From: an uncultured Planctomycetales bacterium
Lineage (GTDB): Bacteria; Omnitrophota; Gorgyraeia; Zapsychrales; JAHFFX01
Reading direction: 5' to 3'
Assembly: GCA_964612665.1 (NCBI GenBank)
Contig: CAZTCI010000004.1
Span: forward strand, 142,376 to 206,375
DNA length: 64,000 nucleotides
The position numbers were made by a program, and so were the translations under genes. Of the stretch, positions 32,950 through 51,130 are shown piece after piece (within the stretch, counting starts at the first letter, position 1; every line of letters starts with the position of its first letter). The notes under the pieces are model-generated. The model made no database searches. It saw only the letters and a list, made by a program, of their open reading frames with translations, and was not told the DNA's origin.

Positions 32950-33840
32950 TTGTTGATGCAAACTCAAACCCAGTTGCCTGAAGTTGAGGTTCCCAAAGAC
33001 ACAGATTACTTGGGCGTTTACTTAACCAACCGTTGTTTCCTTTCCTGCTCCTACTGCATCACCAATTACAACGAACAATTTATAAATCTAAAAAAATTCC
33101 GCGAGCTTGAAGCGTCCGAATGGGTTGAGGCTTTAAACCGTTTGAAACTTCCCCCCGGCGTTCCTTTAACGTTTCAAGGAGGGGAGCCTTTTATTCATAA
33201 AGGGATTTGGGAAATTCTGGAGAATGTTCATCACAAAATTGATATTCTGACAGCCTTACCGCCGCAAGTTACCGTCGAGAGATTTACACAATTAAAGACG
33301 CTCGTATGGAACAAACGCCCCGCCCCCTATCCCACCATTAGGGTCAGTTTCCATAAAGGGCAAAACGATTACAAAAAATTAATTGAGCGCATCAAAAAAC
33401 TGCAAAAGATTGTCAGTATCGGTTTATACCATATTGAACACCCTGCCTATCCCGAATTAATTGAAGAAATCCGCCAATACGCTAGAGCCGAAGGCGTTGA
33501 ATTCCGTACCAAAACTTTTTTGGGCGAGTATAACGGTAAACTTTATAGTGAATACAGATATCCCGATGCCTGCAAGGGAAAAATAGTTCGTCCGTTGGTC
33601 CAATGCAAGAATACGGTTTTTCCGATTGGCCCGGATGGGACCGTTTACCGTTGTCATTCGGATTTGTATTCTATCCGACGAGAATTGAGCATTGGAAATC
33701 TTCTCGATCCTGATTTAAAACTCGAACACAAGTACCGCGACTGCCGCTTTTATGGGACATGCATTCCCTGTGATGTGAAAGTGAAGACCAACCATTTGCA
33801 GCAACAAGGTTATACATCGGTGGACATCCTCTTTCCTTAA
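32950..33840 (+). CDS. radical SAM protein
   Basis: CxxxCxxC motif (NRCFLSCSYC) about 30 aa from the N-terminus. Additional C-terminal cysteines (CHSD, CRFYGTCIPC). Confidence 0.6.
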   Translation: MLMQTQTQLPEVEVPKDTDYLGVYLTNRCFLSCSYCITNYNEQFINLKKFRELEASEWVEALNRLKLPPGVPLTFQGGEPFIHKGIWEILENVHHKIDILTALPPQVTVERFTQLKTLVWNKRPAPYPTIRVSFHKGQNDYKKLIERIKKLQKIVSIGLYHIEHPAYPELIEEIRQYARAEGVEFRTKTFLGEYNGKLYSEYRYPDACKGKIVRPLVQCKNTVFPIGPDGTVYRCHSDLYSIRRELSIGNLLDPDLKLEHKYRDCRFYGTCIPCDVKVKTNHLQQQGYTSVDILFP

Positions 33841-33943: not shown

Positions 33944-34031
33944 AAACATTTTATGTTATGATTCTTAGACTTTACCCTAACCTAAAACCGAAATGGGTCT
34001 CCTAACCTTAACCGTTAAGAAAAGTCAATCA

Positions 34032-35018
34032 ATGGGCCGCCCAAGAAAAGTTCTCATTGTTAAAACGGGATTTTCCGAATTTTTAGACCGCGGGATTTCG
34101 ACGACGGTGAGTTTAGGCGATGTGCATATTTGTACGGCGCTTTTGCATATTTATAAGAACGATAGTGTGACTTGGATGACTTCTTGGGACGCGCGGTTGC
34201 TTTTTAAGGATAATCCTTATGTTAAAGAGTTGCTGATCTTCGGGCCTCAAGCCATTCAAAAGATCACACAGGCGTCTTATGATCTTCTGATAAATTTGGA
34301 AAAAGACATCGGCATCTGCACCTTCTTACGTCACGTTAAAGCCAAAAAGCGTTTTGGGTTTTATTTTAGCGACCGTATCCATAATATTGCAACGCATAAT
34401 CGTGCCACTAAATATCTTTTAGCCGGACAGGAGAACCACCGCAACATTGATAAATCTGTTTTTGAAATTCTATATGAGGCCGTTGGGGAAAAGTGGAGCG
34501 GGCAGCTGCCGGTGTTTTCCCGTCAGCATAAAAGCGAAATTCGTTACGATGTTGGGTTTAACTACTCCGTCGGAACCAAATGGCCAACGAAGGCGTGGCC
34601 GGATGATAAATGGACGACGCTAGAAACGCTGCTTACGCCGCAATTCAAGATCAGCTGGCAGCGCGGACATCGGAACATTCTTCAATACGTTGACTGGTTA
34701 GACAGCTGCCGGGTTATTGTCACCTCCGATTCGCTGGCGCAATCGTTGGGTGTGGCGCTTGATAAAAAAGTCATTGTGCTTTATGGTCCAACCAATTCTC
34801 GTCGGGTGGAAGGACTTAAGAATTTGGAGGTCATCACATCATGTTTGGATTGTCCGCACATGCCGTGTTTTTCGCCGGTTTGTAAATTTGACCGTTTTTG
34901 TATGGATTATATTTCGCCCGAGCAGGTCGCGGGGATTTGCAGGTCTTGGCTGTCGTCGTCGGAAAGAAGTAAAGAAGCAGAGAAGCAAGAAATAGAGATG
35001 CAGAGAGTATTAATATAG
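34032..35018 (+). CDS. glycosyltransferase family 9 (LPS heptosyltransferase-like)
   Basis: VLIVKTGFSEFLDRGISTTVSLGDVHICTALLHIYKND matches the GT9 N-terminus (KILIIR.SSLGDV...). The C-terminal approximately 20 residues are encoded by repeat A5. Confidence 0.6.
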   Translation: MGRPRKVLIVKTGFSEFLDRGISTTVSLGDVHICTALLHIYKNDSVTWMTSWDARLLFKDNPYVKELLIFGPQAIQKITQASYDLLINLEKDIGICTFLRHVKAKKRFGFYFSDRIHNIATHNRATKYLLAGQENHRNIDKSVFEILYEAVGEKWSGQLPVFSRQHKSEIRYDVGFNYSVGTKWPTKAWPDDKWTTLETLLTPQFKISWQRGHRNILQYVDWLDSCRVIVTSDSLAQSLGVALDKKVIVLYGPTNSRRVEGLKNLEVITSCLDCPHMPCFSPVCKFDRFCMDYISPEQVAGICRSWLSSSERSKEAEKQEIEMQRVLI

Positions 35019-35118: not shown

Positions 35119-36111
35119 ATGCGCAAAATACTCGTAACAGGCGGCGCCGGATACGTCGGCGCTGTTTTAATTCCTAAACTATTAACCAAAGGATACGAGG
35201 TCAAAGTGATCGACCTTTATCTGTACGGCGAAAACGTTTTGGATAAAGTCAAAGATCATCCGGGCTTAACTCAAATTAAAGGCGATATCCGGGATTTAGA
35301 TCTTCTTCGTCGGGAAATGCCGGGAACAGATGCGGTCATTCATCTGGCCTGCATTTCTAACGATCCCAGTTATGAATTAAATCCAGCGCTTGGAAAATCA
35401 ATTAACTATGACGCTTTTCTTCCTCTCGTTGATACAGCCAAGCGTGAAGGCGTTAAGCGTTTTATTTTTGCCTCGAGTTCAAGCGTTTATGGCGTTAAAG
35501 AAGAGCCGGACGTTACTGAAGAACTTTCGCTCGAGCCATTGACGGATTATTCAAAGTACAAAGCGTTGTGCGAAGAATATCTTTTAAAACAGCAGTCTGA
35601 TAACTTTACAGTTTTGATTCTTCGCCCGGCGACAGTTTGCGGTTATTCGCCGCGTTTGCGTCTTGATCTGACAGTCAACATTTTAACGAATCACGCCGTC
35701 AACAAAGGCAAGATCACGGTCTTTGGCGGCGAACAAAAGCGCCCAAACATTCATATTGCAGACATGACCGATCTTTATGTGAAAACATTGAGCTATTCAA
35801 AGGAAAAAATTGCCGGCAAGATCTTTAACGCCGGCTATCAAAATTACAAAGTGATCCAACTGGCCGAAATGGTCAAAAAGGTCGTCGGAAATCCGAACCT
35901 TCAAATGGAAATTGTGGCGTCGGATGATAAGCGTTCGTATTGTGTGTGTTCAGAGAAAATCAAACGTGAACTGGGGTTTGTGCCAAAGCATACTGTTGAA
36001 GACGCCATCCGTGATTTGAAAGAAGCGTTTGAGAATCAGTGGATCAAGGATGCGTCTGGCGATATTCGTTACTACAATATTAAAACAATGCAAGCGGTTC
36101 AGCTGAGTTAG
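35119..36111 (+). CDS. NAD-dependent epimerase/dehydratase (UDP-sugar 4-epimerase-like)
   Basis: KILVTGGAGYVG Rossmann motif. YxxxK catalytic pair (YSKYK). Confidence 0.75.
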   Translation: MRKILVTGGAGYVGAVLIPKLLTKGYEVKVIDLYLYGENVLDKVKDHPGLTQIKGDIRDLDLLRREMPGTDAVIHLACISNDPSYELNPALGKSINYDAFLPLVDTAKREGVKRFIFASSSSVYGVKEEPDVTEELSLEPLTDYSKYKALCEEYLLKQQSDNFTVLILRPATVCGYSPRLRLDLTVNILTNHAVNKGKITVFGGEQKRPNIHIADMTDLYVKTLSYSKEKIAGKIFNAGYQNYKVIQLAEMVKKVVGNPNLQMEIVASDDKRSYCVCSEKIKRELGFVPKHTVEDAIRDLKEAFENQWIKDASGDIRYYNIKTMQAVQLS

Positions 36112-36192
36112 TCGTTCGTTTGTTCGTCGTTCGAGGAAATCGTCCTTTTATTTTGAAATAAAAGAACGAATTCCTCGAACAACGAAAGCAGA
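36112..36192. repeat. family B palindromic repeat, copy B2
   Basis: gtcgttcgtttgttcgtcgttcgaggaaatcg...cgaattcctcgaacaacgaaagca. The arms pair as tcgttcgaggaa / ttcctcgaacaacga. Confidence 0.75.
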
Positions 36193-36336
36193 GACTGTTG
36201 AATAATGAAATTTGAACGCGAATATGCGCGAATTATTCGCGATATTCGTGTGAAATTCGCGAAAATTCGCGTTGACATTCAATCTTTCAATGTCTCAAAG
36301 CACGAACGACGCTTCGCCAAACTAAAACAACCAAAC

Positions 36337-37305
36337 ATGCCGTTAATAACCTCTGAGATTAAGAAACAACTCCTAACCAAGATGCTTAAAATCCGCGCTG
36401 CGGAAGAAAAGATCGTCGATGTTTACACGAAAGAGCAGCAGATCCGCACGCCTACGCATTTGTCGATTGGGCAAGAGGCGGTTGCGGCCGGGCTTTGTCA
36501 GGCGCTTACAAAAGAAGATCAGGTTTTTGCTGGACATCGTTGTCACGCGGTTTACTTGGCCAAGGATGGAGATTTGAACGCGTTTTTCGCGGAACTTTGC
36601 GGACGGATTACCGGCAGCAGCCGCGGGCGCGCCGGGTCGGCTCATTTAACAGACGTTGACAACGGTGTTTACTCTTCGCCGATTTTAGGCGCGATGATTC
36701 CTGTTGCCGTCGGGGCGGCAATGACATTTCAAATGGATCAAAAACCGAATGTCGCGGTTGCCATGTTTGGTGACGGCGCCATTGAAGAAGGGATTCTTGC
36801 GGAAAGTTTGAATTTTGCAATCACCAAAAAACTTCCAATCCTTTTTTTGTGTGAGAACAATTTGTATTCAACGCATTCACCTTTAAAAGTCCGCCAACCT
36901 TCTTCTGCGATTCATGAACGTCTGCGATTGAAAGAACTCAAAACCCAGCAGATCGACGGAAATGACGTCATCTTAGTTTATCAAACTATTTTAAACGCGA
37001 TTGAACAGATCCGCGAAGGCTGGGGCCCGAGCTTTGTTGAATGTTTAACGTACCGGATCCGTGAGCACGTCGGACCTTTGTTCGACTACGACCGCGGTTA
37101 TCGCAGCGAACAAGAAGTCCGTCAGTGGATGGACCGCTGTCCGGTTAAGCGTTACCGCAATCGATTGCTGGCCGAAAGAGTTTTTACGCTAACTGAAATT
37201 GAAGCGGAAGAAAAGAAATGGCAATACCTCGCCGATGAAGCTTATGCTAGTGCGCTTAAAGAGCCGTGGCCGTCGTCGGAAGATTTATTAAAATTTGTAT
37301 ATTAA
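36337..37305 (+). CDS. thiamine-diphosphate-dependent dehydrogenase E1 component, alpha subunit (PDH/acetoin DH E1-alpha-like); alternative upstream start 36205
   Basis: ThDP-binding GDGAIEEG...NN motif (FGDGAIEEGILAESLNFAITKKLPILFLCENNLYS). Followed by an E1-beta gene. The region 36205..36336 is rich in TTCGCGA repeats and may be regulatory rather than coding. Confidence 0.7.
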   Translation: MPLITSEIKKQLLTKMLKIRAAEEKIVDVYTKEQQIRTPTHLSIGQEAVAAGLCQALTKEDQVFAGHRCHAVYLAKDGDLNAFFAELCGRITGSSRGRAGSAHLTDVDNGVYSSPILGAMIPVAVGAAMTFQMDQKPNVAVAMFGDGAIEEGILAESLNFAITKKLPILFLCENNLYSTHSPLKVRQPSSAIHERLRLKELKTQQIDGNDVILVYQTILNAIEQIREGWGPSFVECLTYRIREHVGPLFDYDRGYRSEQEVRQWMDRCPVKRYRNRLLAERVFTLTEIEAEEKKWQYLADEAYASALKEPWPSSEDLLKFVY

Positions 37306-37378
37306 GTTTGCCAGTTTCCAGTTCACAGTTTTGAAAATTATTTAACTGGATAACTTGCCACTGGCTAACTGGAGAACT
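37306..37378. repeat. family F palindromic repeat (CCAGTT / AACTGG type), copy F1
   Basis: gtttgccagtttccagttcacagtt...aactggataacttgccactggctaactggagaact. Same family at 57039..57117. Confidence 0.7.
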
Positions 37379-37383
37379 AAAAA

Positions 37384-38424
37384 ATGCGTCAACTAAGTTA
37401 CGCTGAAGCGATTTCCGAAGCACTGATCCAAGGAATGGAGCGCGACCCGGACGTTTTTATTTTCGGATTAGGCGTTGATGATCACAAAGGCGTTTTTGGA
37501 ACGACCCGACGGGCGTTTGAGAAATTTGGTTCGGCGCGTGTTTTTGATACGCCAGCGAGCGAAGCGGCATTAACCGGAATTGCGATGGGCGCGGCTTTAA
37601 ACGGCAAGCGTCCAATTTTAGTTCACGCGCGTAATGATTTTATGTTTTTGACGCTCGATCAAATGATCAATAACGCTGCTAAATGGAAATACACGTACGG
37701 CGGAAAATCTTCGGTGCCTTTTGTCGTGCGCGGGATTATAGGAAAAGGGTGGGGCCAGGGGCCGACGCATTCGCAAAGTATTCAATCGATCTTCGCGCAT
37801 TTCCCCGGGCTTTTGGTCGCGATGCCGACGACACCGTATGATGTGAAAGGAATTCTCTTAGAAAGTTTTCGCGTCGATACGCCCGTCGTTATCCTTGAGC
37901 ACCGCAGTTTATACAATTTAAAAGGCAATGTGCCCGACGGATATTATACGGTTCCATTCGGTCAAGCGCGTTGTTTGCGTGTGGGACAAGATGTCACGGT
38001 TGTGGCAACATCTTTTATGGCGCAAGAAGCGTTAAAGGCCGCCGAGATTTTGAGTCGAGAAAATATTAGTCTAGAAGTTATTGATCCTATCAGCCTGCAG
38101 CCTTTTGATGAAGCCGCCGTCATTGAATCCGTTAAGAAAACCGGGCGTTTGATTTCGGCGGACACCAGTTGGCTGTCATGCGGCTTTGCCAGCGAAGTCG
38201 CCGCCACCGTCGCGGAAAAAGCTTTTGAATATTTAAAAGCGCCAGTCCGTAGAATTGCCTGGCCAGCATGCCCTTGCCCAGTTTCAAAAAATTTAGAAGA
38301 TGTCTTTTACCGTTCTTATAAAGATATCATCGAAGCGGCTTGTGAATTGACAGGCAAAAAAGAAAAGACTGTTCAGTTCAAACAAGAAGAAGCGGTTGTG
38401 GATGTGTTTATGGGACCTTATTAG
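37384..38424 (+). CDS. E1 component beta subunit (transketolase-like pyrimidine-binding and C-terminal domains)
   Basis: MRQLSYAEAISEALIQGMERDPDVFIFG is the typical E1-beta N-terminus. Pyr-binding and TKC domains. Confidence 0.8.
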   Translation: MRQLSYAEAISEALIQGMERDPDVFIFGLGVDDHKGVFGTTRRAFEKFGSARVFDTPASEAALTGIAMGAALNGKRPILVHARNDFMFLTLDQMINNAAKWKYTYGGKSSVPFVVRGIIGKGWGQGPTHSQSIQSIFAHFPGLLVAMPTTPYDVKGILLESFRVDTPVVILEHRSLYNLKGNVPDGYYTVPFGQARCLRVGQDVTVVATSFMAQEALKAAEILSRENISLEVIDPISLQPFDEAAVIESVKKTGRLISADTSWLSCGFASEVAATVAEKAFEYLKAPVRRIAWPACPCPVSKNLEDVFYRSYKDIIEAACELTGKKEKTVQFKQEEAVVDVFMGPY

Positions 38425-38426
38425 GT

Positions 38427-38486
38427 GATAGGGTTTTAGGTGTCAGGTGTTAGGGACTAAAACTAAAACCTAAGACCCAAACCCTA
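38427..38486. repeat. family D palindromic repeat (GGGTTTAGG-type), copy D2
   Basis: tagggttttaggtgtcagg...cctaagacccaaaccctag inverted arms. Related arms flank the mini-MITE at 33893..33989. Confidence 0.6.
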
Positions 38487-38493
38487 GAAAAAT

Positions 38494-39495
38494 ATGAAAA
38501 GACGAATCATAGTCCTAGGCAGCAACTCATTCTCCGGCGCTGATTTCATTGATCTTCTGCTCGAAGATCCGATGAACGAAGTCATCGGCATCAGCCGCTC
38601 GCCGGAAAAGGATGAAGTTTTCTTACCTTATCATCGTCATGGGACGACGAAACGCTTTCAATTTTATCAGTTTGATTTAAACCAGCCTATCGACCGGGAA
38701 CGGATTTTTAGTTTGCTTGATAAATTCCAGCCCGAATATATTGTGAATTTCGCAGCGCAAAGTGAAGTCGGCCCGAGCTGGTCAACGCCCTGGCATTGGT
38801 TTGAAACCAACGCCGTCGCGCTTTCACATCTCATTGACCGTTTTAAGAATGCCAGTTATCTCAAAAGCTATGTGCATATTTCGAGTCCAGAAATTTACGG
38901 GTCATGCCAAGGCGTTGTGAAAGAAGATTCTTCCTTTAACCCCAGCACGCCCTACGCGGCTTCAAAGGCGGCGGCGGATTTGCTTTTGTTTTCCTATTTT
39001 AAAAATTATAAATTTCCTTTAGTTATTGTCCGCGCAACGAATGTCTATGGCGTGGGCCAGCAGCTTTTTAAAATTGTTCCGCGCACGGTGATTTCCATTA
39101 AATCCCGCCGGCCTTTGGAACTTCACGGGGGTGGCAAAGTCATCAAGTCATATATCCATATCCGCGATGTTTCTCGAGGAGAATTAGCCGCGATGCTTCA
39201 TGGACAACCGGGCGAAGTTTATCATTTCTCACCGCAGCGGGGAATCACAGTGCGGGAAGTTGTTGAAACAATTTGTGCCCGCATGGGCGTTGATTTTTCA
39301 ACTTCCATCAAATCCGTCGAAGAACGTTTGGGCCAGGACAACGCGTATGTCATTGATTCCTCGAAGGCGCAAAAAGAATTTGGCTGGAAGGTTGAAGTCC
39401 CTTTAGAGGAAGGGATTGATCAAGTGATCGAATGGATTAACCGCAACTGGGACCGCATTGAGCAATTGCCGTTTGAGTATATTCATAAAGAGTGA
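38494..39495 (+). CDS. NAD-dependent epimerase/dehydratase family protein (dTDP/UDP-sugar 4,6-dehydratase-like)
   Basis: IIVLGSNSFSGADF Rossmann-like N-terminus. YxxxK (YAASKAAAD). Confidence 0.7.
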   Translation: MKRRIIVLGSNSFSGADFIDLLLEDPMNEVIGISRSPEKDEVFLPYHRHGTTKRFQFYQFDLNQPIDRERIFSLLDKFQPEYIVNFAAQSEVGPSWSTPWHWFETNAVALSHLIDRFKNASYLKSYVHISSPEIYGSCQGVVKEDSSFNPSTPYAASKAAADLLLFSYFKNYKFPLVIVRATNVYGVGQQLFKIVPRTVISIKSRRPLELHGGGKVIKSYIHIRDVSRGELAAMLHGQPGEVYHFSPQRGITVREVVETICARMGVDFSTSIKSVEERLGQDNAYVIDSSKAQKEFGWKVEVPLEEGIDQVIEWINRNWDRIEQLPFEYIHKE

Positions 39496-39505
39496 TTAAT
39501 ATCTT

Positions 39506-40390
39506 ATGATATCGAGAGAAAAACCAACTGTCTTTATTCTTTCAATTAGCAGCGACATTGGACTTTTTCTGGCCAGGAAATATTTGGAGAGGGGCTGCCG
39601 TGTCATCGGAACATATCGTTCTCCAGAAGCTCTTGTCGAATTAAAAGCGTTAAAAGGTTGCGAACTCTTTCAATGCGATATTAGCCGGAAAGATAATGTG
39701 GATGAGTTAGTGCAATCTCTTAAAAGACTGAATGTACAGTGGCATACTTTCATTTCTTGCGTCGGGTATTTGCTCCCGGTTAAACCTTTTTTTAACGCGA
39801 GCTTTGAGGAATGGGAACAATCTGTTTTGATCAATTCCATCGATCAATTGCGTGTCTTACATAAACTTTATCCTTTTTGTGATCAAAGTAAAACAGCGAA
39901 TGTCGTTTTTTTCGCCGGTGGTGGCGCCAACAACGTGACAATCAGCATGTCCGCTTATGCGGCGGCTAAAATTCTATTAATGAAAATGTGTGAACATTTG
40001 GATGTTGAGAATAGTAACATGAAATTCTTTATGGTTGGGCCGGGTTGGACCAAGACAAAACTGCACGAAGTCATTTTAAAGACACCGGGCGTCGATCAAC
40101 ATAAATATCAGCAAACCAAAGAATTCATGGAAACAAAACAAGGGACTGCGCTACAGGAAATTTGTGAATGCATTGACTGGCTTTGTGAACAGGAAAAATC
40201 TGTTGTGAGCGGCCGCAATTTTTCTGTTGTCCATGACCCTTGGCGCATTGAAAGCCGGGAAGATCTCCTTCAAGCATTGAAAGCAGAACCTGAAATGTAT
40301 AAACTCCGTCGGTACAACAACGATTTTCTTCAAAATATTGAAAGTGTTTATGGGGAAGTCCAAAAAATTAAGCCAGCAAGAAGCGTATAG
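39506..40390 (+). CDS. short-chain dehydrogenase/reductase-like protein
   Basis: Rossmann N-terminus ILSISSDIGLFLARKYLERGCRVIGTYR. YAAAK catalytic motif. Confidence 0.55.
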   Translation: MISREKPTVFILSISSDIGLFLARKYLERGCRVIGTYRSPEALVELKALKGCELFQCDISRKDNVDELVQSLKRLNVQWHTFISCVGYLLPVKPFFNASFEEWEQSVLINSIDQLRVLHKLYPFCDQSKTANVVFFAGGGANNVTISMSAYAAAKILLMKMCEHLDVENSNMKFFMVGPGWTKTKLHEVILKTPGVDQHKYQQTKEFMETKQGTALQEICECIDWLCEQEKSVVSGRNFSVVHDPWRIESREDLLQALKAEPEMYKLRRYNNDFLQNIESVYGEVQKIKPARSV

Positions 40391-41042
40391 ACTCGGTACA
40401 GATTATCAGTTTGTCGACTTAATTGAGCTGGGACCGTGGTCGTCTTACAGCCTGCTTAACGACCCTAAGCATATGGGTTTTGTTTTGGCCCGTTATAAAT
40501 TTTGCGCCAAGATGTTGGAAGGAAAAAAGAAGGTCTTGGAAGTTGGTTGCGGTGATGGATTCGGCGCGCCAGTTGTTGCGCAGGCCGTTGGACATTTGGT
40601 TGCGATCGACCCCGAAGCCCGCCATATTGAAGGCAACAAACGGAGGCTGGCTAAAATTAAAAATATTGAATTTAAGCATATGGATATCTGCCACAGTCTG
40701 CCCGACGGAGAATTTGACGGCATTTTTTCAATCGATGTCATTGAACATTTGGACAAACCGCTTAATAAGAAATTTATGGAAAATCAGCGTGACTTGCTTA
40801 ACGACGACGGTGTTTGTATCATCGGTACCCCCAACATTACCGCGAATAAATACGCTTCACCGCGCAGCCGCGTTCAACACATCAATTTAAAAAGCCATAA
40901 AACGTTACGCATGCAGATGGAAAAATATTTTAGGAACGTTTTTATGTTCAGCATGAATGATGAAGTGTTACATACAGGCTATGCGCCGATGGGGCATTAT
41001 ATTTTTGGAATGGGAGTCGGGGTTAAGAAAAGTAGAGAGTAG
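40338..41042 (+). CDS. class I SAM-dependent methyltransferase
   Basis: VLEVGCGDGFGAPVVAQAVGHLVAIDPEA SAM-binding motif I. The C-terminal approximately 7 residues are encoded by repeat A6. Confidence 0.65.
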   Translation: MKVFMGKSKKLSQQEAYRLGTDYQFVDLIELGPWSSYSLLNDPKHMGFVLARYKFCAKMLEGKKKVLEVGCGDGFGAPVVAQAVGHLVAIDPEARHIEGNKRRLAKIKNIEFKHMDICHSLPDGEFDGIFSIDVIEHLDKPLNKKFMENQRDLLNDDGVCIIGTPNITANKYASPRSRVQHINLKSHKTLRMQMEKYFRNVFMFSMNDEVLHTGYAPMGHYIFGMGVGVKKSRE

Positions 41043-41105
41043 CAAGGAGCGAGGAGAGAGTGCCATTAGCTGACTCTCTACTTTCTCCTCTCTACTCGCT
41101 CCTTT
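41028..41105. repeat. family A palindromic repeat, copy A6
   Basis: aaaagtagagagtagcaaggagcgaggagagagt...actctctactttctcctctctactcgctcctt. Confidence 0.75.
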
Positions 41106-41121
41106 AAAAGGAAGTACACAA

Positions 41122-42942
41122 ATGAAGCTTTCTGATTTCATTGCTCAATTTCTCGTCGATCAAGGCATTAAACATGTCTTCATTGTCTCCGGCGGAGCGA
41201 TCATTCATTCGATTGATTCCATCGCGCGGCATCCGGACATTGATTACATTTGTGTCCAGCATGAACAAACCGCCGGCGCGGCTGCTGAGGCTTATTCGCG
41301 GATTTCAGGAAAACTTGGGACCGCCATGGTCACAAGCGGACCGGGTGCGACCAATTTGACGACGAGCATTTGTAACGCTTACTTTGATTCTGTACCCGCG
41401 CTTTTTATTTGCGGGCAAGTGACGACCTTCCGACTTAAGTCCAATGAAGTAAGACAAAAAGGTTTTCAAGAGACAAACATTGTTTCCATTTTTCAATCGA
41501 TTACTAATTATGCCGCTCAAGTTTTGAATCCTTTAGACATCAAGTATGAACTTGAAAAGGCCGTTCATTTAGCGACGATCGGCCGGCCAGGGCCGGTTGT
41601 GCTGGATATTCCTGACGATATTCAAAGAACGGAAATCGATCCCAAATCGTTGCGTTCATTTTTTCCTCATGCTCCTCAGAATGCCCGCAACATTCAAAAA
41701 GAAATTGAAAAAATCGACGCTTGGATTAAAGAGGCCCAGCGTCCGGTTTTAATTTATGGCGCTGGCATCAGAATCGCCAACGCGATCACTGAGGCGCAGG
41801 CGTTCGCGCGGCATTATCATCTGCCGGTACTTTTAACTTGGAGCGCTAAAGATATTATGATCTTCAACGATGATTTGAATTTCGGCGGACTGGGCGTCTG
41901 CGGTCCGCGCGCCGGAAATTTCGCCGCGCAGAATTCGGATTTGGTCATTGCGATGGGAACACGTCTTTCGCAAATGGTCACCGGCGGAAAACAAAGCCTT
42001 TTTGCGCCCAACGCCAAAAAGATTATGATTGATTTAGATAACGGCGAACTTAACAAATTCAACGCCCACGATTTTACATTAGATTTAAAAGTGGCCTGCG
42101 ATCTTAAACGATTTTTTAAATCCTGGTCGGCTCACATCAAAGAAAAAGAACCAGACGCATTTCTTTCTTGGCGCAATCAAATTAAACAATGGCACAAGCA
42201 GTATCCGGTTTGCCCGCCGCCAAAATATAAGAGAACAAAAGACGTCGACGGCCATGTCTTTGTGAAAGAACTGTCTCATCAACTGAAGGAAGGCGATGTT
42301 ATTATTGCCGACACCGGCGCTAACATTGCTTGGACGCTACAGGCCATTGAAATAAAAAAAGGCCAAAGACTTTTCTCGGCGTGGAATCACACGCCGATGG
42401 GTTATTCTCTGCCGGCAGCGGTTGGCGCCGCGTTGGCGGGGCGCAATCAAGAAGTTATCGCCTTGATTGGCGACGGCGGTATGATGATGTGTTTATATGA
42501 ATTAGCCACGATTAAGCGTTATCAATTGCCCGTTAAGGTTTTTATTTTTAATAATCGAGGCCATTCGATCCAAAAACAAACAATCGACACCTGGCTTCAT
42601 TCGAACTATGTGGCTGTTAATGAAGAAACGGGTTTAAGTTTTCCTGACTTTGTTAAGCTCGCTGAATCTTTCGGTTTGCCGGCGACCACAATTAGTAATC
42701 ATTCACATATTAAGGAAGTGATTCGTCAGACGTTATCGATGGCTGGGCCAGTTGTTTGTAATGTTGAAATTGATCCAGACCAGAAGATTGAACCGATGCT
42801 GAAATATGGCGCTGGGCTTGAAGATTTGGATCCTAAAATTGCCGTCGAGGAATTAAAAGCCGTCATGAGTGTCTCTACTGCTCAAGCCAATGCGTCAAAA
42901 GACGAGGCGCTGATTTCCTCTAATAAAATAACAATTCACTAA
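41122..42942 (+). CDS. thiamine-diphosphate enzyme of the acetolactate-synthase large-subunit family
   Basis: N-terminal Pyr domain (AMVTSGPGATNLTTSICNAYFDSVPALFICGQV), central domain, C-terminal PP domain with GDGGMMM...N ThDP/Mg motif. Confidence 0.8.
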   Translation: MKLSDFIAQFLVDQGIKHVFIVSGGAIIHSIDSIARHPDIDYICVQHEQTAGAAAEAYSRISGKLGTAMVTSGPGATNLTTSICNAYFDSVPALFICGQVTTFRLKSNEVRQKGFQETNIVSIFQSITNYAAQVLNPLDIKYELEKAVHLATIGRPGPVVLDIPDDIQRTEIDPKSLRSFFPHAPQNARNIQKEIEKIDAWIKEAQRPVLIYGAGIRIANAITEAQAFARHYHLPVLLTWSAKDIMIFNDDLNFGGLGVCGPRAGNFAAQNSDLVIAMGTRLSQMVTGGKQSLFAPNAKKIMIDLDNGELNKFNAHDFTLDLKVACDLKRFFKSWSAHIKEKEPDAFLSWRNQIKQWHKQYPVCPPPKYKRTKDVDGHVFVKELSHQLKEGDVIIADTGANIAWTLQAIEIKKGQRLFSAWNHTPMGYSLPAAVGAALAGRNQEVIALIGDGGMMMCLYELATIKRYQLPVKVFIFNNRGHSIQKQTIDTWLHSNYVAVNEETGLSFPDFVKLAESFGLPATTISNHSHIKEVIRQTLSMAGPVVCNVEIDPDQKIEPMLKYGAGLEDLDPKIAVEELKAVMSVSTAQANASKDEALISSNKITIH

Positions 42943-44144
42943 TGCTGACCCAAACCGCTTACCGTATTATTCAAACCCGACAGCAGTGCGCTGTTTGTGA
43001 AAGTTCCAATCTGGAAACGGCCATCGACTTGCCTGATCTTCCATTAACCGGAAGATTTTCCAAACAACCGATGGTGGTGAAACCGCAAGGCATTGGGCAG
43101 AAATTATTGTTTTGTGCAAATTGCGGCCATGCGCAGGCAGCTTTCCAAGTCGATCCGTCGGCATTATATGATGAGACGTATAGTTTTCGAACTTCCCAAA
43201 GTACAACCGCAAAAAATGGAACAGCGTTTTTCCTTAATACACTTAACGCGTTGGTCGGAGAAAAACGTTTTCAATGTGTTTTAGATGTCGGCTGTAATGA
43301 TCTTTATCTTTTGAATCAGCTAAAAGACAGAGTTGAGATTTGCGTCGGAGTAGATCCTATTTGGCGGGGCCAAGAAGCTGGAGTTTCAAAAACAAATTTT
43401 ACAGTGATTGGCAAATCGATTGAAGAGATGGATTTTAGAAAAGATTTAAAAGTGCGGCCGGATTTGATTGTTTGCCGGCATACACTTGAACATATTTATA
43501 ATCCTAGCGCTGTTTTGGAAAATTTATTTAACATTGCCGCCGACGGAGCGGTTTTTTTGTTCGAAGTGCCTGGCTTCGACGGGTTGCTTGAGCGTTTACG
43601 CTTCGATCAAATCTTCCATCAGCATCTGCAGTATTTCTCGTTGTATTCGTTTTTACGGATGATTGAAAAATCCGGCGGCTGTTATCTTGGGCACCGGGAA
43701 AATTATCATGACTGGTCAGCGCTTTGTATTGGATTTAAGAAGGAAAAGACCTCCGGCGTTACAAAGACGGTTAAGAAACATACGTTGACCGAGATTAAAA
43801 AACGTTATGGTCTATTCCAGAATCAAATACGCACCGCTGGCGAAACCTTAGATGCGTTAAAAACTGAAGAAGTTTACGGCTACGGCGCTGCTGGAATGCT
43901 ACCAATTTTAAGTTATCATCTCAACAATGACTTGTCTGATTTGGTTTGCGTTCTCGATGATGATTCAGCCAAAGAAGGTTGGTCATATTGGAATCTGCCT
44001 TTGAGTATTCAAAAGCCGGATAAAAATTTTGATTGGGAACACAAAAATATTTTTCTGACAGCCGTTGATAACGCCGGATCGATTTTAAAGAGGCTGCTCT
44101 TGAATCGTCCTCGTCGGATTATTTATCCATTTAATATAATTTAA
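42942..44144 (+). CDS. NDP-hexose C-methyltransferase (TylC3-like) with N-terminal zinc ribbon
   Basis: CAVCESSNLETAIDLPDLPLTGRF...CANCGH zinc-ribbon N-terminus and VLDVGCNDLYLLNQL SAM motif, as in sugar 3-C-methyltransferases. Confidence 0.65.
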   Translation: MLTQTAYRIIQTRQQCAVCESSNLETAIDLPDLPLTGRFSKQPMVVKPQGIGQKLLFCANCGHAQAAFQVDPSALYDETYSFRTSQSTTAKNGTAFFLNTLNALVGEKRFQCVLDVGCNDLYLLNQLKDRVEICVGVDPIWRGQEAGVSKTNFTVIGKSIEEMDFRKDLKVRPDLIVCRHTLEHIYNPSAVLENLFNIAADGAVFLFEVPGFDGLLERLRFDQIFHQHLQYFSLYSFLRMIEKSGGCYLGHRENYHDWSALCIGFKKEKTSGVTKTVKKHTLTEIKKRYGLFQNQIRTAGETLDALKTEEVYGYGAAGMLPILSYHLNNDLSDLVCVLDDDSAKEGWSYWNLPLSIQKPDKNFDWEHKNIFLTAVDNAGSILKRLLLNRPRRIIYPFNII

Positions 44145-44151
44145 TTTTGTT

Positions 44152-44931
44152 ATGGATCTAGGAATTAAAGGAAAAAAGGCATTAGTGACGGGCGCCGGAC
44201 GCGGTATTGGCCGGGCGATTGCCAAAGCGTTGGCAGGCGAAGGCGCCTTGGTGACAGCGGTGTCGCGGACCGAAGATGATCTCAATAAACTTCTTGATGA
44301 AATCGGCGGTCAATCAGTGGGACATCGCACAATCGCGATGGATCTTTTGCCGCCGGGTGCGCCGACAAAACTTCTTAAAGAACTTCAGGAATCTGGTTTT
44401 TATCCACTTGATATTGTTGTACATAATTTGGGCGGCACATTTGATATCCGGGACCCGTTTTGTCCGCTCGATGATTGGCGGAAATTGTATCGTCTGAATT
44501 TTGAAATTGCGGTTGAGTTTAATTTAACCATTTTGCCCGAGATGCAAAAGCGCAAGTGGGGACGGATTGTTCATATCTCCTCGATCTCCGCTTTAGAAAA
44601 CCAAGGACCGGTTCCCTATTGTACTGTTAAAGCGGCGTTGACGGCTTATGTGCGCAGCATGGGCGGTGTGGTTGCGCCCGACGGCGTTGTAATGTCAGCG
44701 GTTTTGCCCGGCGGTGTTTACACGGAGGGCGGCGATTGGGAACGGATGGTTAAAAACCGTCCGGAGCATGTTGAAAAGTTTTTAAAAGAACGCCAGCGCA
44801 TTGGGCGTTTCGGCCGGCCGGAAGAAATTGGAAATTACGTGGCGTTTCTCTGCTCCGAACTCGCCTCATTTAACACCGGAAGCATTGTGCCTGTCGACGG
44901 CGGGCAAGGGAGAGGATATTTTGGACAGTAG
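44152..44931 (+). CDS. SDR-family oxidoreductase
   Basis: KALVTGAGRGIGRAIAKAL TGxxxGxG motif. S...YxxxK (YCTVKAA). Confidence 0.8.
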   Translation: MDLGIKGKKALVTGAGRGIGRAIAKALAGEGALVTAVSRTEDDLNKLLDEIGGQSVGHRTIAMDLLPPGAPTKLLKELQESGFYPLDIVVHNLGGTFDIRDPFCPLDDWRKLYRLNFEIAVEFNLTILPEMQKRKWGRIVHISSISALENQGPVPYCTVKAALTAYVRSMGGVVAPDGVVMSAVLPGGVYTEGGDWERMVKNRPEHVEKFLKERQRIGRFGRPEEIGNYVAFLCSELASFNTGSIVPVDGGQGRGYFGQ

Positions 44932-44954
44932 AAGTTGTTATCAATCAGAATTGT

Positions 44955-45398
44955 TTGGATTTTATAGATCTCGTTATGGCCTTGGATTTAGGAAGTTTTA
45001 AAAAAGCCGTTGGATCGCTTGAAAGAGCCTTGCAGGTGGCGTGTTCTCCACAAAAAATGGCTGGATTAGACAAGGACCAAAAAGAAACAATCCGAGCGGG
45101 CGTTATCCAGAATTTTAAATTTACGTATGAATTGTCCTGGAAGTTTATGAAACGCTGGCTTGAACGCAATCTCGGCTCAACTTATGTCGATGGGCTTTTC
45201 CGTCGGGAATTATTTAGATTATCTATTGAGCATCAATTAATTAACAATATTGAAAATTGGATGGTGTACCATGAAGCGCGCAGCCAAACCGCGCATACCT
45301 ACGATGAGATAAAAGCGCAAGAGGTCTTTGAGACCGCCCAAGGGTTTTTAAATGACGCCCAAATATTGCCCAAAAGTCTTGAGACCAAGAATGATTAA
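44955..45398 (+). CDS. HEPN-domain protein (HI0074 / nucleotidyltransferase substrate-binding family)
   Basis: IQNFKFTYELSWKFMKRWLERN matches the conserved core of the HI0074 family. The 3' end overlaps the next gene as ATGATTAA. Confidence 0.6.
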   Translation: MDFIDLVMALDLGSFKKAVGSLERALQVACSPQKMAGLDKDQKETIRAGVIQNFKFTYELSWKFMKRWLERNLGSTYVDGLFRRELFRLSIEHQLINNIENWMVYHEARSQTAHTYDEIKAQEVFETAQGFLNDAQILPKSLETKND

Positions 45399-45699
45399 CG
45401 TTCACGCTAAAAATTTAACAGCGGTAAAAAAGATTTTAGACCAATATCTTCCTGGGATTGAAGTTTGGGCTTTTGGTTCGCGTGTCGGCGGCCAAGCCAA
45501 ATCATACTCGGATTTGGACTTGGTTATTGTTGGAAAAAGTAAAATTGATCGTGTGGCATGGGTTCGTTTAAAAGAGGCCTTTGAAGAATCCAAACTTCCT
45601 TTTCGAGTTGATCTCATCGATTGGAACAGTATATCGACGGATTTTCAGAAAATTGTTACGCAGAATTACGAAATACTTCAAAGTGGAAAAAAATCATAA
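45391..45699 (+). CDS. minimal nucleotidyltransferase (MNT, Pol-beta superfamily)
   Basis: AFGSRVGGQAKSYSDLDLVIV is the GSx10DxD nucleotidyltransferase motif. Paired with the HEPN gene. Confidence 0.6.
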   Translation: MINVHAKNLTAVKKILDQYLPGIEVWAFGSRVGGQAKSYSDLDLVIVGKSKIDRVAWVRLKEAFEESKLPFRVDLIDWNSISTDFQKIVTQNYEILQSGKKS

Positions 45700-45709
45700 A
45701 ACAACAATA

Positions 45710-46504
45710 GTGGATCAGGAGACCTGGCGCATTCACAATTATTTACGCCGACGGATCGTTGATATGGTCGTTGAAGGACGCGACGGACATATCCCGAGTG
45801 CGTTTTCTATTTTGGATCTCGTTACTCTTTTGTATAAATACTATTTAAAATTTGATCCCACCAAACCGCAATGGCCGGAGCGGGATTATTTTATTTTAAG
45901 CAAAGGCCACGGGTGCTTGGCGTTGTATGTGAATTTGAAAGAGCATGGATTTATTACCGAGGAGGATTTGAAGAAATTCTGTAAGGCTGACGGCATTCTA
46001 GGTGAACATCCGGATTCGACCAAGGTGCCAGGGGTTGAAGCCTGCACAGGTTCTTTGGGCCACGGCATTTGTTTTGCCGTCGGGCTGGCGCTCGGATTGC
46101 GCATTCAAGGACAAAACAATAAGATTTATGTTTTAGTTGGCGACGGCGAATGTCACGAAGGGACCGTGTGGGAAGCGGCGAATATCGCGAACAATTTACA
46201 ATTGGGAAATCTTTGTGTCATCGTTGATTGGAACGGTTCAGCCGCGCAATTGATGCCGCGTGATGACTTGCCGTCGAAATGGCGGGCGTTCGGCTGGCAG
46301 ACGCGCGTGATTGACGGCCATTCTTTGAAAGAAATTCACGGCGCATTTAATGCTACGGAATTCCGCAGTGAAGGCTCTCCGTCGGTAATTCTAGCCAAGA
46401 CAATCAAAGGAAAAGGTGTTCCGATGCTGGAAGGCCACGGCAGCTGGCACCACCGTATTCCAAATGAGCAAGAATATAAAGTGATTATGGAAGCCTTGAC
46501 TTAA
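45710..46504 (+). CDS. transketolase, N-terminal (ThDP-binding) subunit; GTG start tentative
   Basis: Split-transketolase N-section motifs (GHIPSAFSILDL, GSLGHGICFAVGLAL, GDGECHEGTVWEA). Confidence 0.7.
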   Translation: MDQETWRIHNYLRRRIVDMVVEGRDGHIPSAFSILDLVTLLYKYYLKFDPTKPQWPERDYFILSKGHGCLALYVNLKEHGFITEEDLKKFCKADGILGEHPDSTKVPGVEACTGSLGHGICFAVGLALGLRIQGQNNKIYVLVGDGECHEGTVWEAANIANNLQLGNLCVIVDWNGSAAQLMPRDDLPSKWRAFGWQTRVIDGHSLKEIHGAFNATEFRSEGSPSVILAKTIKGKGVPMLEGHGSWHHRIPNEQEYKVIMEALT

Positions 46505-46533
46505 CCACCCCAACCCCGGGGGTTGAGGTGGTT
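46503..46533. repeat. family E palindromic repeat (CCCCAACC / GGTTGGGG type), copy E1
   Basis: aaccaccccaacccc-ggg-ggttgaggtggtt directly after the transketolase-N stop. Confidence 0.6.
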
Positions 46534-46557
46534 TTTGAGTTAATTCGAGAGAAGATT

Positions 46558-47499
46558 ATGTCAAAAGATATCCGGCAACAATTCGCCGACACAATGCTTG
46601 AAGTGGGACAGGAAGATCCGTTGCTCACTGTTCTCGTCTCAGATATAAGTCATTTTAAATTACAGCCGTTTGCCAAAGCTTGTCCGGGACGATTTTATAA
46701 TATCGGAATTTGTGAACCAGCAATCGTCAGCATGGCCGCGGGATTATCCAAAGCCGGATTGCATCCTGTTGCGCACACAATCACGCCTTTTTTAATTGAA
46801 CGCTGTTTTGAGCAGATTAAGCTGGATTTTTGTTATCAAAACCTAGGAGGAAATTTAATTTCGGTTGGCAGCGCTTTTGATTACGCTGGTTTAGGCTGTA
46901 CACATCATTGTTATAATGACTTCGCGATTTTAAAATGTTTGCCAGGTATTAACCTATTTTACCCGTCGAGTGCGCTTGAATTTGACCGCTTGTTTCGTTT
47001 GAATTATAAAAATGGCCACTTGAATTATTATCGTCTCCCTGCCCAAAGCCATGGTCATGCGTTTGATGCAAAAGAGATTACGCATGGTTCTGGAATAAAG
47101 ATCACGCCAGGAAACGATTTGACAGTTGTCGTCACCGGCCCGCAACTAAAAAATGTGCTGGAAGCCTGTACAGTTCTAAAACGAGAGGGCTGGGATCCGG
47201 AGGTGATTTATATTCATACGATCCATCCTCTGGATGAAAATATGATTTTGGAAAGTGTCCGTAAAACGAGGCATGTGCTAGTTATCGAGGAACATATTTT
47301 TCACGGCGGGCTGGCGCACACGATAAAATCTCTGTTGCAAACGCCCAATGACATTCAACTAACCTACCTCTGTATTCCTCCCGAATTTTTGCGCGGTTAT
47401 GGGACTTATGAAGACCAATGCCGGCGCATTAATTTGACGGCCCAGGGTATCGTCGCAAAAATTAGAAAAGATTTTAAAAGAAGAATGGTTTCGGCATGA
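46558..47499 (+). CDS. transketolase, C-terminal (pyrimidine-binding plus C-terminal) subunit
   Basis: Pyr-domain and TKC-domain sequence. Adjacent to the N-subunit gene. Confidence 0.7.
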   Translation: MSKDIRQQFADTMLEVGQEDPLLTVLVSDISHFKLQPFAKACPGRFYNIGICEPAIVSMAAGLSKAGLHPVAHTITPFLIERCFEQIKLDFCYQNLGGNLISVGSAFDYAGLGCTHHCYNDFAILKCLPGINLFYPSSALEFDRLFRLNYKNGHLNYYRLPAQSHGHAFDAKEITHGSGIKITPGNDLTVVVTGPQLKNVLEACTVLKREGWDPEVIYIHTIHPLDENMILESVRKTRHVLVIEEHIFHGGLAHTIKSLLQTPNDIQLTYLCIPPEFLRGYGTYEDQCRRINLTAQGIVAKIRKDFKRRMVSA

Positions 47500-51097: not shown

Positions 51098-51127
51098 CCA
51101 TCCCAACCTCCGGGGTTGGGGAGGTCA
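51064..51127. repeat. family E palindromic repeat, copy E2 (two tandem hairpins)
   Basis: aacctccccaacc-ccgg-aggttggggaggtt followed by cccaacc-tccgg-ggttgggg. Confidence 0.65.
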
Positions 51128-51130
51128 GCC

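Follow-up and report, generated by a model that had tools for sequence, protein, structure and literature searches.

What does a bacterium build with three different thiamine diphosphate (ThDP)-dependent, carbon-carbon bond-forming enzymes encoded in one gene cluster? We addressed this question in a 64-kb stretch of DNA (64,000 nucleotides; "the window", numbered from its first letter) from an uncultured Planctomycetales bacterium placed by GTDB in the Omnitrophota (GenBank assembly GCA_964612665.1, contig CAZTCI010000004.1, positions 142,376 to 206,375 of the forward strand). An earlier note, made from the sequence alone, had described a sugar-modification block at 35119-47499 and suggested that it makes one highly branched sugar. 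Using open reading frame (ORF) listings and Pfam scans, we find all of the named genes at or near their given positions, all on the plus strand. Both methods agree that a pyruvate dehydrogenase (PDH)-like E1 alpha/beta pair (E1ab), an acetolactate synthase (ALS)-family enzyme, and a split transketolase lie in one co-directional block. The clustering is real, but the range covers only the middle part of a tightly packed, operon-like array of 27 genes (32950-63935, ~31 kb) that reaches at least 63935 and contains many stop/start codon overlaps, and a HEPN/MNT gene pair inside the block had been missed. The block also contains four short-chain dehydrogenases/reductases (SDRs), two extended and two classical, rather than three. 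We conclude that the locus probably builds one or more C-branched, methylated sugars for a cell-envelope glycoconjugate. The gene content and homologies are established, and from them we infer every catalytic step of the pathway proposed below.

Three classes of ThDP enzyme in a sugar-tailoring cluster

Branching of keto-sugars is known, or has been proposed, for each of the three ThDP classes (PMC12247030, PMC9306805). The earlier note had asked whether the three might instead belong to central metabolism; we found that all of the ThDP proteins score below their NCBIfam cut-offs and that their relatives are strongly syntenic with sugar-nucleotide genes.

The ALS-family protein is a candidate YerE-like carboligase, with a nucleoside diphosphate (NDP)-keto-sugar as its predicted acceptor. 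It scores 400 bits against the acetohydroxyacid synthase (AHAS) model TIGR00118, which has a cut-off of 538. As a single sequence, its best solved relative is JanthE (8rph; 5.7e-96), at 325 bits compared with 258 for the best AHAS. A profile of 19 family members scores 427 bits for JanthE and 368 for AHAS, and the match extends into the C-terminal tail. The catalytic Glu48 and the G450-D451-G452...N478 ThDP motif are invariant in these 19 members; the window protein has the canonical GDG where JanthE has CDG. More than 100 homologues share 55-67% identity with the window protein. JanthE is a YerE-like carboligase that accepts ketones (PMC12188165, PMC12247030), and our YerE-like comparison is made with JanthE. 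YerE chemistry adds an acyl anion derived from a 2-oxo acid to an NDP-4-keto-sugar, and the resulting ketone is then reduced (PMC9306805, PMC12247030). As with YerE/YerF (yersiniose A, Yersinia pseudotuberculosis), ErwE, MygE, and JanthE, the window has an ALS-family ThDP enzyme beside an SDR in a glycan locus. However, it contains no CDP-3,6-dideoxyhexose genes, its enzyme is paired with E1ab and two methyltransferases, and relatives of the locus are linked to heptose-type activation genes.

The E1 pair is also a candidate sugar-branching enzyme, a reading that we argue from gene context. E1 alpha scores 249 bits against TIGR03182 (cut-off 394) and E1 beta 301 bits against NF006667 (cut-off 321), and the best PDB match of E1 beta is the G. 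stearothermophilus E1 beta (1.7e-68). The longest ORF of E1 alpha begins at 36205, yet we favour a start at 36337 because the orthologues are 318 aa long. Within the core cassette loci described below the E1 alpha orthologues reach 450-490 bits, and the pair adjoins NDP-sugar SDRs in ~20 loci. E1 pairs of the class 2 alpha-keto acid dehydrogenase (alpha-KADH2) type place C2 (acetyl) branches on 3- or 4-keto sugars (PMC12247030). Like the actinomycete alpha-KADH2 enzymes of aldgamycin, avilamycin (AviB1/B2), and kibdelomycin (KbDH-alpha/beta), the window pair is encoded without E2 or E3 within an NDP-sugar tailoring cluster, a likeness of gene content and setting. No E2, E3, lipoyl, or ilvN/ilvC-type protein was seen among the window ORFs scanned, which include nearly all of those >120 aa. 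In contrast to the actinomycete pairs, the window pair is non-actinobacterial, lies in a locus of cell-envelope type, and is encoded together with a YerE-like enzyme.

A transketolase-like clade with a predicted remodelled pocket

The N and C halves of the split transketolase (TktN and TktC) score 240 and 126 bits, respectively, against an NCBIfam cut-off of 488. Their best PDB matches are the N chain of the Carboxydothermus hydrogenoformans split transketolase (1.3e-64) for TktN and 6yaj (5e-39) for TktC. Using MAFFT, we aligned E. coli TktA and the C. hydrogenoformans enzyme with the concatenated N and C proteins of the window and with the orthologues found in related loci. The ThDP and catalytic residues His26, His66, His100, Asp155, Asn185, Arg358, Glu411, and His473 (E. 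coli numbering) are retained in the window enzyme and its orthologues. In the window C subunit, His461 is replaced by Gly and Asp469 by Leu, and this Gly461/Leu469 combination is invariant in 120 of 120 C-subunit homologues with 54-64% identity, drawn from metagenome-assembled genomes (MAGs) of many phyla. The C. hydrogenoformans split transketolase retains both His461 and Asp469. In canonical transketolases such as those of E. coli and yeast, His461 contributes to binding the phosphate of the substrate, and Asp469 recognises the acceptor's C2 hydroxyl. These two changes in the substrate pocket define, at the sequence level, a distinct transketolase-like clade to which the window enzyme belongs, with a pocket that is predicted to be remodelled. 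The conclusion is drawn from His461 and Asp469 only; the Ser385 and Arg520 columns moved between two MAFFT runs, and position 520 of the window enzyme, which is not Arg in one alignment, falls in such an alignment-dependent column. We also considered the transketolase as a supplier of sedoheptulose-7-phosphate for heptose synthesis and rejected this role because the phosphate- and acceptor-hydroxyl-binding residues are lost. One cassette-linked split transketolase from another locus (L133, 9810-11626) retains Ser385, His461, Asp469, and Arg520, so that canonical-type and remodelled transketolases both occur in these loci.

Gene fusions tie split transketolases to sugar tailoring. TktN is fused to an extended SDR in three independent assemblies (L004, L005, and L099). 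An N-terminal extension is present in 13 of the 150 best TktN representatives in the library, and we scanned 10 of these 13. The fusion partner is an NDP-sugar epimerase/dehydratase domain in four cases, a PfkB kinase in two, and in one case each a complete TylC3-type C-methyltransferase (PF08421 + PF13489 + PF08484), a class I methyltransferase, and a family 2 glycosyltransferase (GT2); the remaining extension has no recognised domain. As judged from these domains, the fusions link split transketolases to nucleotide-sugar tailoring, notably C-methylation. The two fusions to a PfkB carbohydrate kinase (P0412 and P0425) differ in type from those to NDP-sugar SDRs and methyltransferases.

Split transketolases have been proposed to carry out hydroxyacetyl branching in the miharamycin and amipurimycin pathways of Streptomyces, where a C2 ketol unit would be moved to a keto-sugar (PMC12247030). 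The 13 sequences of this kind listed in a 2025 review are uncharacterised and come exclusively from Streptomyces, and transketolase-type sugar branching is so far proposed only, never having been demonstrated in vitro (PMC12247030). As in the miharamycin and amipurimycin clusters, the two-gene transketolase of the window is embedded among sugar-tailoring genes. Compared with the 13 Streptomyces sequences, the window clade is large (>120 members, 54-64% identity, many uncultivated phyla) and is marked by its Gly461/Leu469 signature, and elsewhere split transketolases form fusion proteins with NDP-sugar SDRs and with a C-methyltransferase.

Methyltransferases and other tailoring enzymes

The S-adenosylmethionine (SAM) methyltransferase encoded directly after the ALS-like gene carries an N-terminal zinc ribbon (ZnMT) and had been called a TylC3-type C-methyltransferase. 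Our searches uphold the zinc ribbon and the kinship with 3-C-methyltransferases but place the protein farther away, as a distant member of the TylC3/TcaB9/MtmC-type sugar C-methyltransferases by sequence. Among solved structures it is closest to NDP-sugar 3-C-methyltransferases (4rv9, 4.3e-18; TcaB9, 1e-12). With TylC3, TcaB9, and MtmC it shares a four-Cys N-terminal zinc ribbon and a class I SAM domain, and its C-terminal region may correspond to their nucleotide-binding-like domain. The four Cys (CxxC...CxxC) are conserved across the orthologues, which all share a conserved C-terminal region of ~150 aa, and residues equivalent to His181 and His225 are retained. These positions follow the active-site numbering of TcaB9 (His181, Tyr222, Glu224, His225), which we take to be that of the Holden laboratory papers. 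ZnMT differs from the characterised enzymes in its low similarity (E 4e-18), in the replacement of Tyr222 and Glu224, and in PF08484, the C-terminal C-methyltransferase model, which it does not match at Pfam E <= 1e-3.

ZnMT has a constant partner in the classical SDR that follows it (SDR_b). The two genes are directly adjacent in L112, L150, and L158, separated by one small gene in L004, and separated by the transketolase genes in L157. The PhyH-like dioxygenase and a further SDR, SDR_c, accompany the ZnMT/transketolase genes in L150, and SDR_c does so in L157 as well; with the aldo-keto reductase they are accessory tailoring genes. Another SDR (SDR_a) lies directly upstream of a class I methyltransferase gene (MT_a) and the ALS-like gene in the core cassette. 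MT_a is 66-74% identical in L004, L006, and L007, and MT_a-like genes always adjoin a ThDP gene in related loci, be it ALS-like, transketolase, or E1; an MT_a profile run against PDB returned generic methyltransferase relatives only. The dTDP-glucose 4,6-dehydratase-like protein (Dh46) matches PDB 6bi4 (1.9e-40) and has SPE in place of the DE of RmlB. Dh46 is missing from the closest relatives and present in L004 and the heptose-type loci, and its gene at 38494-39495 is a second insertion, accessory in the window lineage.

A recurring core cassette and an accessory module

The conservation of the cluster, which the earlier note had proposed as a check, was examined in metagenome loci (our L numbers). 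We gathered relatives from the contexts of three ALS-like homologues and then from a metagenome scan anchored on MT_a, and annotated them with the window proteins. Flanks extended up to 10 kb per side, and the combination counts below, taken over 34 loci of at least 9 kb, are lower bounds. A previous contig scan with the ALS-like alignment, which used generic patterns such as VTSGPGATN, returned mostly ordinary ilvB, with only L009-L011 as relevant loci.

We found that a core cassette recurs in ~20 metagenome loci in the order Epi1 (an extended SDR), E1 alpha, E1 beta, (Dh46), SDR_a, MT_a, ALS-like, MT_b (a second class I methyltransferase), and a Zn-dependent alcohol dehydrogenase (Zn-ADH). 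In Omnitrophota-type loci, radical SAM and GT9 (family 9 glycosyltransferase) genes precede the core, and GT2, YfhO-like, and TPR genes follow it. The clustering is not due to chance: the same gene sets are present in >30 independent metagenome loci, whose GC contents range from 0.30 to 0.70. These loci include a Pacearchaeota MAG and a Caulobacterales MAG, and the family extends to small-genome uncultivated lineages, including DPANN archaea.

The combination of ThDP classes varies among the 34 loci. E1 occurs with the ALS-like enzyme in 13, the ALS-like enzyme alone in 7, the transketolase alone in 4, E1 with the transketolase in another 4, E1 alone in 2, and none of the three in 3. All three classes were found in a single locus (L099, from the same lineage as L004), bearing out the earlier view that the combination is unusual.

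In the closest relatives, MT_b and Zn-ADH directly follow the ALS-like gene, so 42942-56394 of the window behaves as a 13.4 kb insertion. It contains the ZnMT, SDR_b, toxin-antitoxin-type pair, transketolase, first YfhO-like, dioxygenase, aldo-keto reductase, SDR_c, GT2, and second YfhO-like genes. Elsewhere these genes are combined differently. The transketolase and ZnMT genes are interleaved with core genes in L004 and L099, and in L150 the transketolase occupies the usual ALS-like position in one operon with E1ab. In L112 and L158, ZnMT and SDR_b lie beside an ALS-like paralogue. Within the sequence examined, L157 has ZnMT, SDR_b, and transketolase, and L152 and L168 have an SDR and transketolase with no ZnMT, in all three cases without E1 or an ALS-like enzyme. 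From this distribution, the locus looks modular, with the transketolase, ZnMT, and SDR forming an accessory module. Directly downstream of the branched-sugar operon in L150 are a NeuB-family synthase and a CMP-sugar-type cytidylyltransferase (16069-17698), which suggests a nonulosonic acid pathway in the same glycan locus.

A possible heptose link

NDP-heptose is our best guess for the substrate, and for the window itself this guess is drawn from relatives. GmhA-like (SIS) and HldE-like (nucleotidyltransferase + PfkB kinase) genes border the cassette in 11 of the 34 loci and, in addition, in L011. The domain order of the HldE-like protein is reversed relative to E. coli HldE, with the nucleotidyltransferase N-terminal and the PfkB kinase C-terminal (L150 13390-14859; L108 11914-13401; L109 1415-2953). 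With its swapped domains and scores below cut-offs, the HldE-like protein may make an activated sugar other than standard ADP-heptose. Epi1, the candidate C4-dehydrogenase, has PDB 6vo6/6vo8 as its best solved relative (E 3e-48), and the window cassette includes a protein of the heptosyltransferase family GT9, both in keeping with a heptose.

Between the E1 beta and SDR genes, the heptose-type relatives also encode a candidate class B methylase, namely a radical SAM protein of the B12-binding kind (L109 7624-9129; L108 8259-9707); in L110 (7627-9969) it is fused to that SDR as a 781 aa protein. A NUDIX hydrolase lies between MT_b and Zn-ADH (L109 13161-13697).

The proposed logic, in which an NDP-heptose would be oxidised at C4 and then tailored, resembles that of capsular heptose modification in Campylobacter jejuni, with its C4-dehydrogenase, epimerases, and reductases, and the related cassettes are flanked by the GmhA-like/HldE-like genes. 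It differs in that the nucleotide is probably of ADP type (RfaE domain II-like) and not GDP, and in that the window itself has no heptose genes. We know of no ThDP-dependent branching of a heptose, or of any such step in a heptose pathway. Heptose is also absent from the 2025 ThDP review (PMC12247030). A C4-dehydrogenase role in C. jejuni capsular heptose modification has been described for Cj1427 (PMC10680097).

Glycosyltransferases and membrane proteins

Genes for sugar transfer lie at both ends of the array. The GT9 protein has a weak match to heptosyltransferase II (NCBIfam), and its gene is kept beside the SDR in five metagenome loci plus L006 and L007. Omnitrophota-type loci carry the GT9 gene where the heptose-type loci have the GmhA/HldE-like genes, and the two never occur in the same locus within the sequence examined. 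The GT2 at 52946-53680 has weak NCBIfam matches to ArnC, AglJ, and dolichyl-phosphate hexose transferase. The first two YfhO-like proteins are paralogues with 44% identity, and the third is barely related to them (E 2e-4); no NCBIfam model matches any of the three. The order GT2, YfhO-like, TPR, which would form the export and attachment end of the core, recurs in L007 and L008, and a GT2 gene follows Zn-ADH in eight loci. As in the three-component CsbB/YfhO and GtrB/GtrC glycosylation systems, which combine a polyprenyl-phosphate sugar with a GT-C transferase, small GT2 genes lie directly upstream of large YfhO-like proteins. In contrast to those systems, no GtrA-like flippase was recognised in the window, only the last ~60 residues match YfhO, and TPR proteins follow.

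Proposed pathway

We propose a five-step pathway. An NDP-sugar, probably an NDP-heptose made by GmhA/HldE-type enzymes, would be converted to a keto-sugar by Epi1 with or without Dh46. ThDP-bound acyl anion equivalents would then attack the sugar ketone. E1ab would donate the C2 unit acetyl, taken from pyruvate, the YerE-like enzyme would donate acetyl or a longer unit derived from a 2-oxo acid, and the transketolase-like enzyme would donate hydroxyacetyl. The neighbouring SDRs and Zn-ADH could reduce the branch ketones, which the class I methyltransferases would cap, and the TylC3-like ZnMT could C-methylate the carbon alpha to a keto group. Finally, GT9 and GT2 would take up the sugars, and the three YfhO-like and the TPR proteins may attach them outside the membrane.

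Several observations weigh against this pathway or its heptose substrate. In the 64-kb window there is no nucleotidyltransferase for sugar activation, no GmhA, and no HldE. The heptose link is instead borrowed from more distant loci, in which Epi1 scores 250-490 bits and the GT9 gene is absent. Among NCBIfam models, the SIS and bifunctional proteins there match gmhA and rfaE domains I and II best, each with a score below the cut-off. The identification of 6vo6/6vo8 as Cj1427, the GDP-heptose C4-dehydrogenase of C. jejuni, is tentative. Both lipoyl-transfer histidines are retained in E1 alpha and beta, so the sequence alone cannot set E1ab apart from a PDH or acetoin E1. The margin of JanthE over AHAS (427 compared with 368 bits) is modest. 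In ZnMT, Tyr222 is Phe in all orthologues, and Glu224 is Gln in most, remaining Glu in L004 and L099. Fused TktN representatives score no higher than canonical split transketolases, suggesting that some fused forms may fall outside the Gly/Leu clade. Lastly, the YfhO assignment covers only the C-terminal ~60 residues in all three membrane proteins.

Alternative readings

A first issue is whether the window makes one sugar or two. The earlier note suggested one highly branched or chain-extended sugar. On this reading, the C-methyltransferase and all three ThDP enzymes would work one after another on the same NDP-sugar, for example with the ketone of the first acyl branch as the acceptor for the next, yielding a multiply branched higher-carbon sugar. 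The core does contain both E1ab and the YerE-like enzyme, paired in 13 of the 34 loci, which implies that the core product already needs two ThDP steps. The interleaved gene order of L004 and L099 keeps the single-sugar reading alive, and E1ab, ZnMT, and transketolase share one tight operon in L150. In the window, however, the accessory genes form a contiguous insert with its own GT2, two YfhO-like genes, and a toxin-antitoxin pair, and the locus as a whole has three GT2/YfhO-like sets. Much of this insert occurs elsewhere without the other two ThDP enzymes (L157, L152, L168), and the L150 transketolase substitutes for the YerE-like enzyme instead of being added to it. We therefore lean somewhat towards an inserted module that produces a separate second sugar, or a variant of the first, and a single sugar carrying all four changes seems to us unlikely.

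Other readings take the locus away from sugar branching or from the cell surface. The gene set (ALS, E1ab without E2/E3, SDR, and Zn-ADH) parallels alsS/acoAB/budC/bdhA, and could form an acetolactate/acetoin/butanediol-type sub-pathway that supplies a non-sugar substituent or, as with acetoin:DCPIP oxidoreductase, the acetyl donor, the product then being attached to the sugar. This would account for the pairing of E1ab with the ALS-like enzyme, SDR_b matches BudC at 127 bits, and AcoAB-type enzymes carboligate from acetoin-type donors (PMC12247030). Yet JanthE, which accepts ketones, is nearer to the ALS-like family than is any ALS, anabolic or catabolic, the BudC and PDH scores are below cut-offs, no acetolactate decarboxylase was seen, and the genes lie amid NDP-sugar SDRs and glycosyltransferases, making acyloin supply improbable. 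A soluble, heptose-derived metabolite of septacidin or aminoglycoside type, in place of a surface glycan, would suit the heptose-type relatives with their NUDIX hydrolase and B12-radical SAM protein and no obvious Wzx/Wzy. The characterised alpha-KADH2 and proposed transketolase branching enzymes also all come from antibiotic clusters (PMC12247030). However, the cassette leads into GT2/YfhO-like/TPR genes in the window and at least eight relatives and is preceded by a GT9 gene, the family is present in small-genome lineages including DPANN archaea, and no aglycone or scaffold genes were seen, so we regard such a product as quite improbable. Finally, ordinary pyruvate/acetoin dehydrogenase, ilvB, and tkt genes might lie near glycan genes by chance, since their domain architectures are the same as those of housekeeping enzymes and the E1 catalytic histidines are kept. 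With all ThDP scores below equivalog cut-offs, no E2/E3, ilvN/ilvC, or pentose-phosphate neighbours among the window ORFs scanned, His461 and Asp469 lost from the transketolase, and NDP-sugar synteny kept in >30 loci of widely differing GC, we regard this reading as all but ruled out.

Relation to known sugar-branching pathways

ThDP keto-sugar branching is known from a few lipopolysaccharide sugars (yersiniose, erwiniose, and caryophyllose) and from actinomycete antibiotics, and the 2025 review counts ~200 predicted YerE-like enzymes and ~120 alpha-KADH2 clusters (PMC12247030). We found no description of the cassette or of its Omnitrophota context in the literature on Omnitrophota. The chemistry classes are thus known; the combination and the lineages are new, and the substrate class is probably new as well. 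What is added is a pathway family that combines three ThDP classes, occurs commonly among uncultivated lineages such as Omnitrophota and DPANN archaea, and likely acts on a heptose. In the Gly461/Leu469 transketolase-like clade there is now a defined group of candidates for the ketone-accepting transketolases that have so far been missing, and the proteins can be synthesised and assayed, which makes an open question of ThDP enzymology testable. The locus further points to envelope glycans not yet known in this phylum, of which hardly any members have been cultured. More tentatively, the loci might represent a modular family for C-branching of NDP-heptoses or higher sugars in uncultivated bacteria and DPANN archaea, with the three ThDP classes as serial or interchangeable carboligases. 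The window would then be its maximal version, building multiply branched, methylated sugars derived from heptose, with a polyprenyl-phosphate/YfhO-like display route and the first natural ketone-accepting transketolases outside actinomycetes.

Gene order and surroundings of the array

The 27 genes of the array are listed in Table 1. Upstream of 35119 are the radical SAM and then the GT9 gene; from 47496 onward come YfhO-like 1, the PhyH-like dioxygenase, the aldo-keto reductase, an SDR, GT2, and YfhO-like 2, followed by a methyltransferase, Zn-ADH, a double GT2, YfhO-like 3, and two TPR proteins. Orthologues of the radical SAM protein open the cassette in L006, L007, L093, L098, L103, and L153. 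An NCBIfam equivalog search returned none for the radical SAM, GT9, YfhO-like, GT2, MT_b, Zn-ADH, and PhyH-like proteins.

Table 1. Genes of the co-directional array in the window, with domain assignments
Gene product	Position	Strand	Assignment and remarks
Radical SAM protein	32950..33840	+	Pfam Radical_SAM; heads cassette in Omnitrophota-type loci
GT9 (heptosyltransferase-family) glycosyltransferase-like	33993..35018	+	Pfam Glyco_transf_9, E 6e-14
Epi1, extended SDR, candidate NDP-sugar C4-dehydrogenase	35119..36111	+	Pfam Epimerase; in core cassette
E1 alpha, alpha-KADH2 ThDP enzyme	36337..37305	+	Pfam E1_dh, E 8.5e-53
E1 beta	37384..38424	+	Pfam Transket_pyr + Transketolase_C
Dh46, extended SDR, dTDP-glucose 4,6-dehydratase-like	38494..39495	+	TIGR01181, 196 bits (cut-off 365)
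SDR_a, classical SDR, candidate branch ketoreductase (YerF-like role)	39506..40390	+	Pfam adh_short
MT_a, class I SAM methyltransferase	40350..41042	+	Pfam Methyltransf_23/25/11
ALS-family ThDP enzyme, YerE-like carboligase candidate	41122..42942	+	Pfam TPP_enzyme_N/M/C
ZnMT, zinc-ribbon SAM methyltransferase	42942..44144	+	Pfam Methyltransf_13 (PF08421, zinc-binding) + Methyltransf_23 (PF13489)
SDR_b, classical SDR	44152..44931	+	Pfam adh_short; constant ZnMT partner
HEPN (NTase_sub_bind)	44955-45398	+	Pfam
MNT (minimal nucleotidyltransferase)	45352-45699	+	Pfam; pairs with HEPN
TktN, split transketolase-like N subunit (ThDP-binding)	45710..46504	+	Pfam Transketolase_N; longest ORF from 45581
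TktC, split transketolase-like C subunit (pyrimidine-binding)	46528..47499	+	Pfam Transket_pyr + Transketolase_C
YfhO-like polytopic membrane protein 1, candidate GT-C type transferase	47496..50369	+	Pfam YfhO
PhyH-like dioxygenase	50345-51097	+	Pfam
Aldo-keto reductase	51116-52135	+	Pfam
SDR_c, SDR	52132-52953	+	Pfam
GT2, polyprenyl-phosphate sugar synthase-like	52946-53680	+	Pfam
YfhO-like protein 2	53671-56394	+	Pfam YfhO
MT_b, class I methyltransferase	56366-57037	+	Pfam
Zn-ADH	57122-58156	+	Pfam
Double-GT2 protein	58164-59651	+	Pfam
YfhO-like protein 3	59648-61885	+	Pfam YfhO
TPR protein	61882-62265	+	Pfam
TPR protein	62262-63935	+	Pfam

The HEPN/MNT pair (44955-45699) sits between the SDR_b and transketolase genes, and none was seen at the equivalent position in the related loci annotated with the window proteins. 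It is a toxin-antitoxin-type insertion outside the pathway. L004 is likewise dotted with small unrelated genes (YhcG/DUF1016 nuclease-like, DUF6680, 23S_rRNA_IVP, and DUF6036).

Promoter and terminator scans of the window performed no better than on shuffled sequence; the sole notable promoter-like site is a 10/12 match at 32731-32760, upstream of the gene at 32950. The remainder of the 64-kb window is ordinary chromosome, including glmS, pyrimidine biosynthesis, a Na+-pyrophosphatase, and tRNAs. The best matches of GlmS that carry a taxon name, at 69-72% identity, are Omnitrophota without exception, which assigns the organism to Candidatus Omnitrophota. Divergent from the cluster, a minus-strand block (27764-32729) encodes two proteins of 541 aa and 402 aa without a Pfam domain, a 462 aa PIG-L (GlcNAc-PI de-N-acetylase family) protein, and a GNAT acetyltransferase. 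A tRNA-Asp (27596-27672) lies just outside this block and marks a possible island boundary. Amid the housekeeping genes, the minus-strand gene at 10154-11734 encodes a 526 aa protein with a Peptidase_S74 domain (E 2.7e-17), an intramolecular chaperone of the endosialidase/phage tail-fibre type, and no other recognisable domain.

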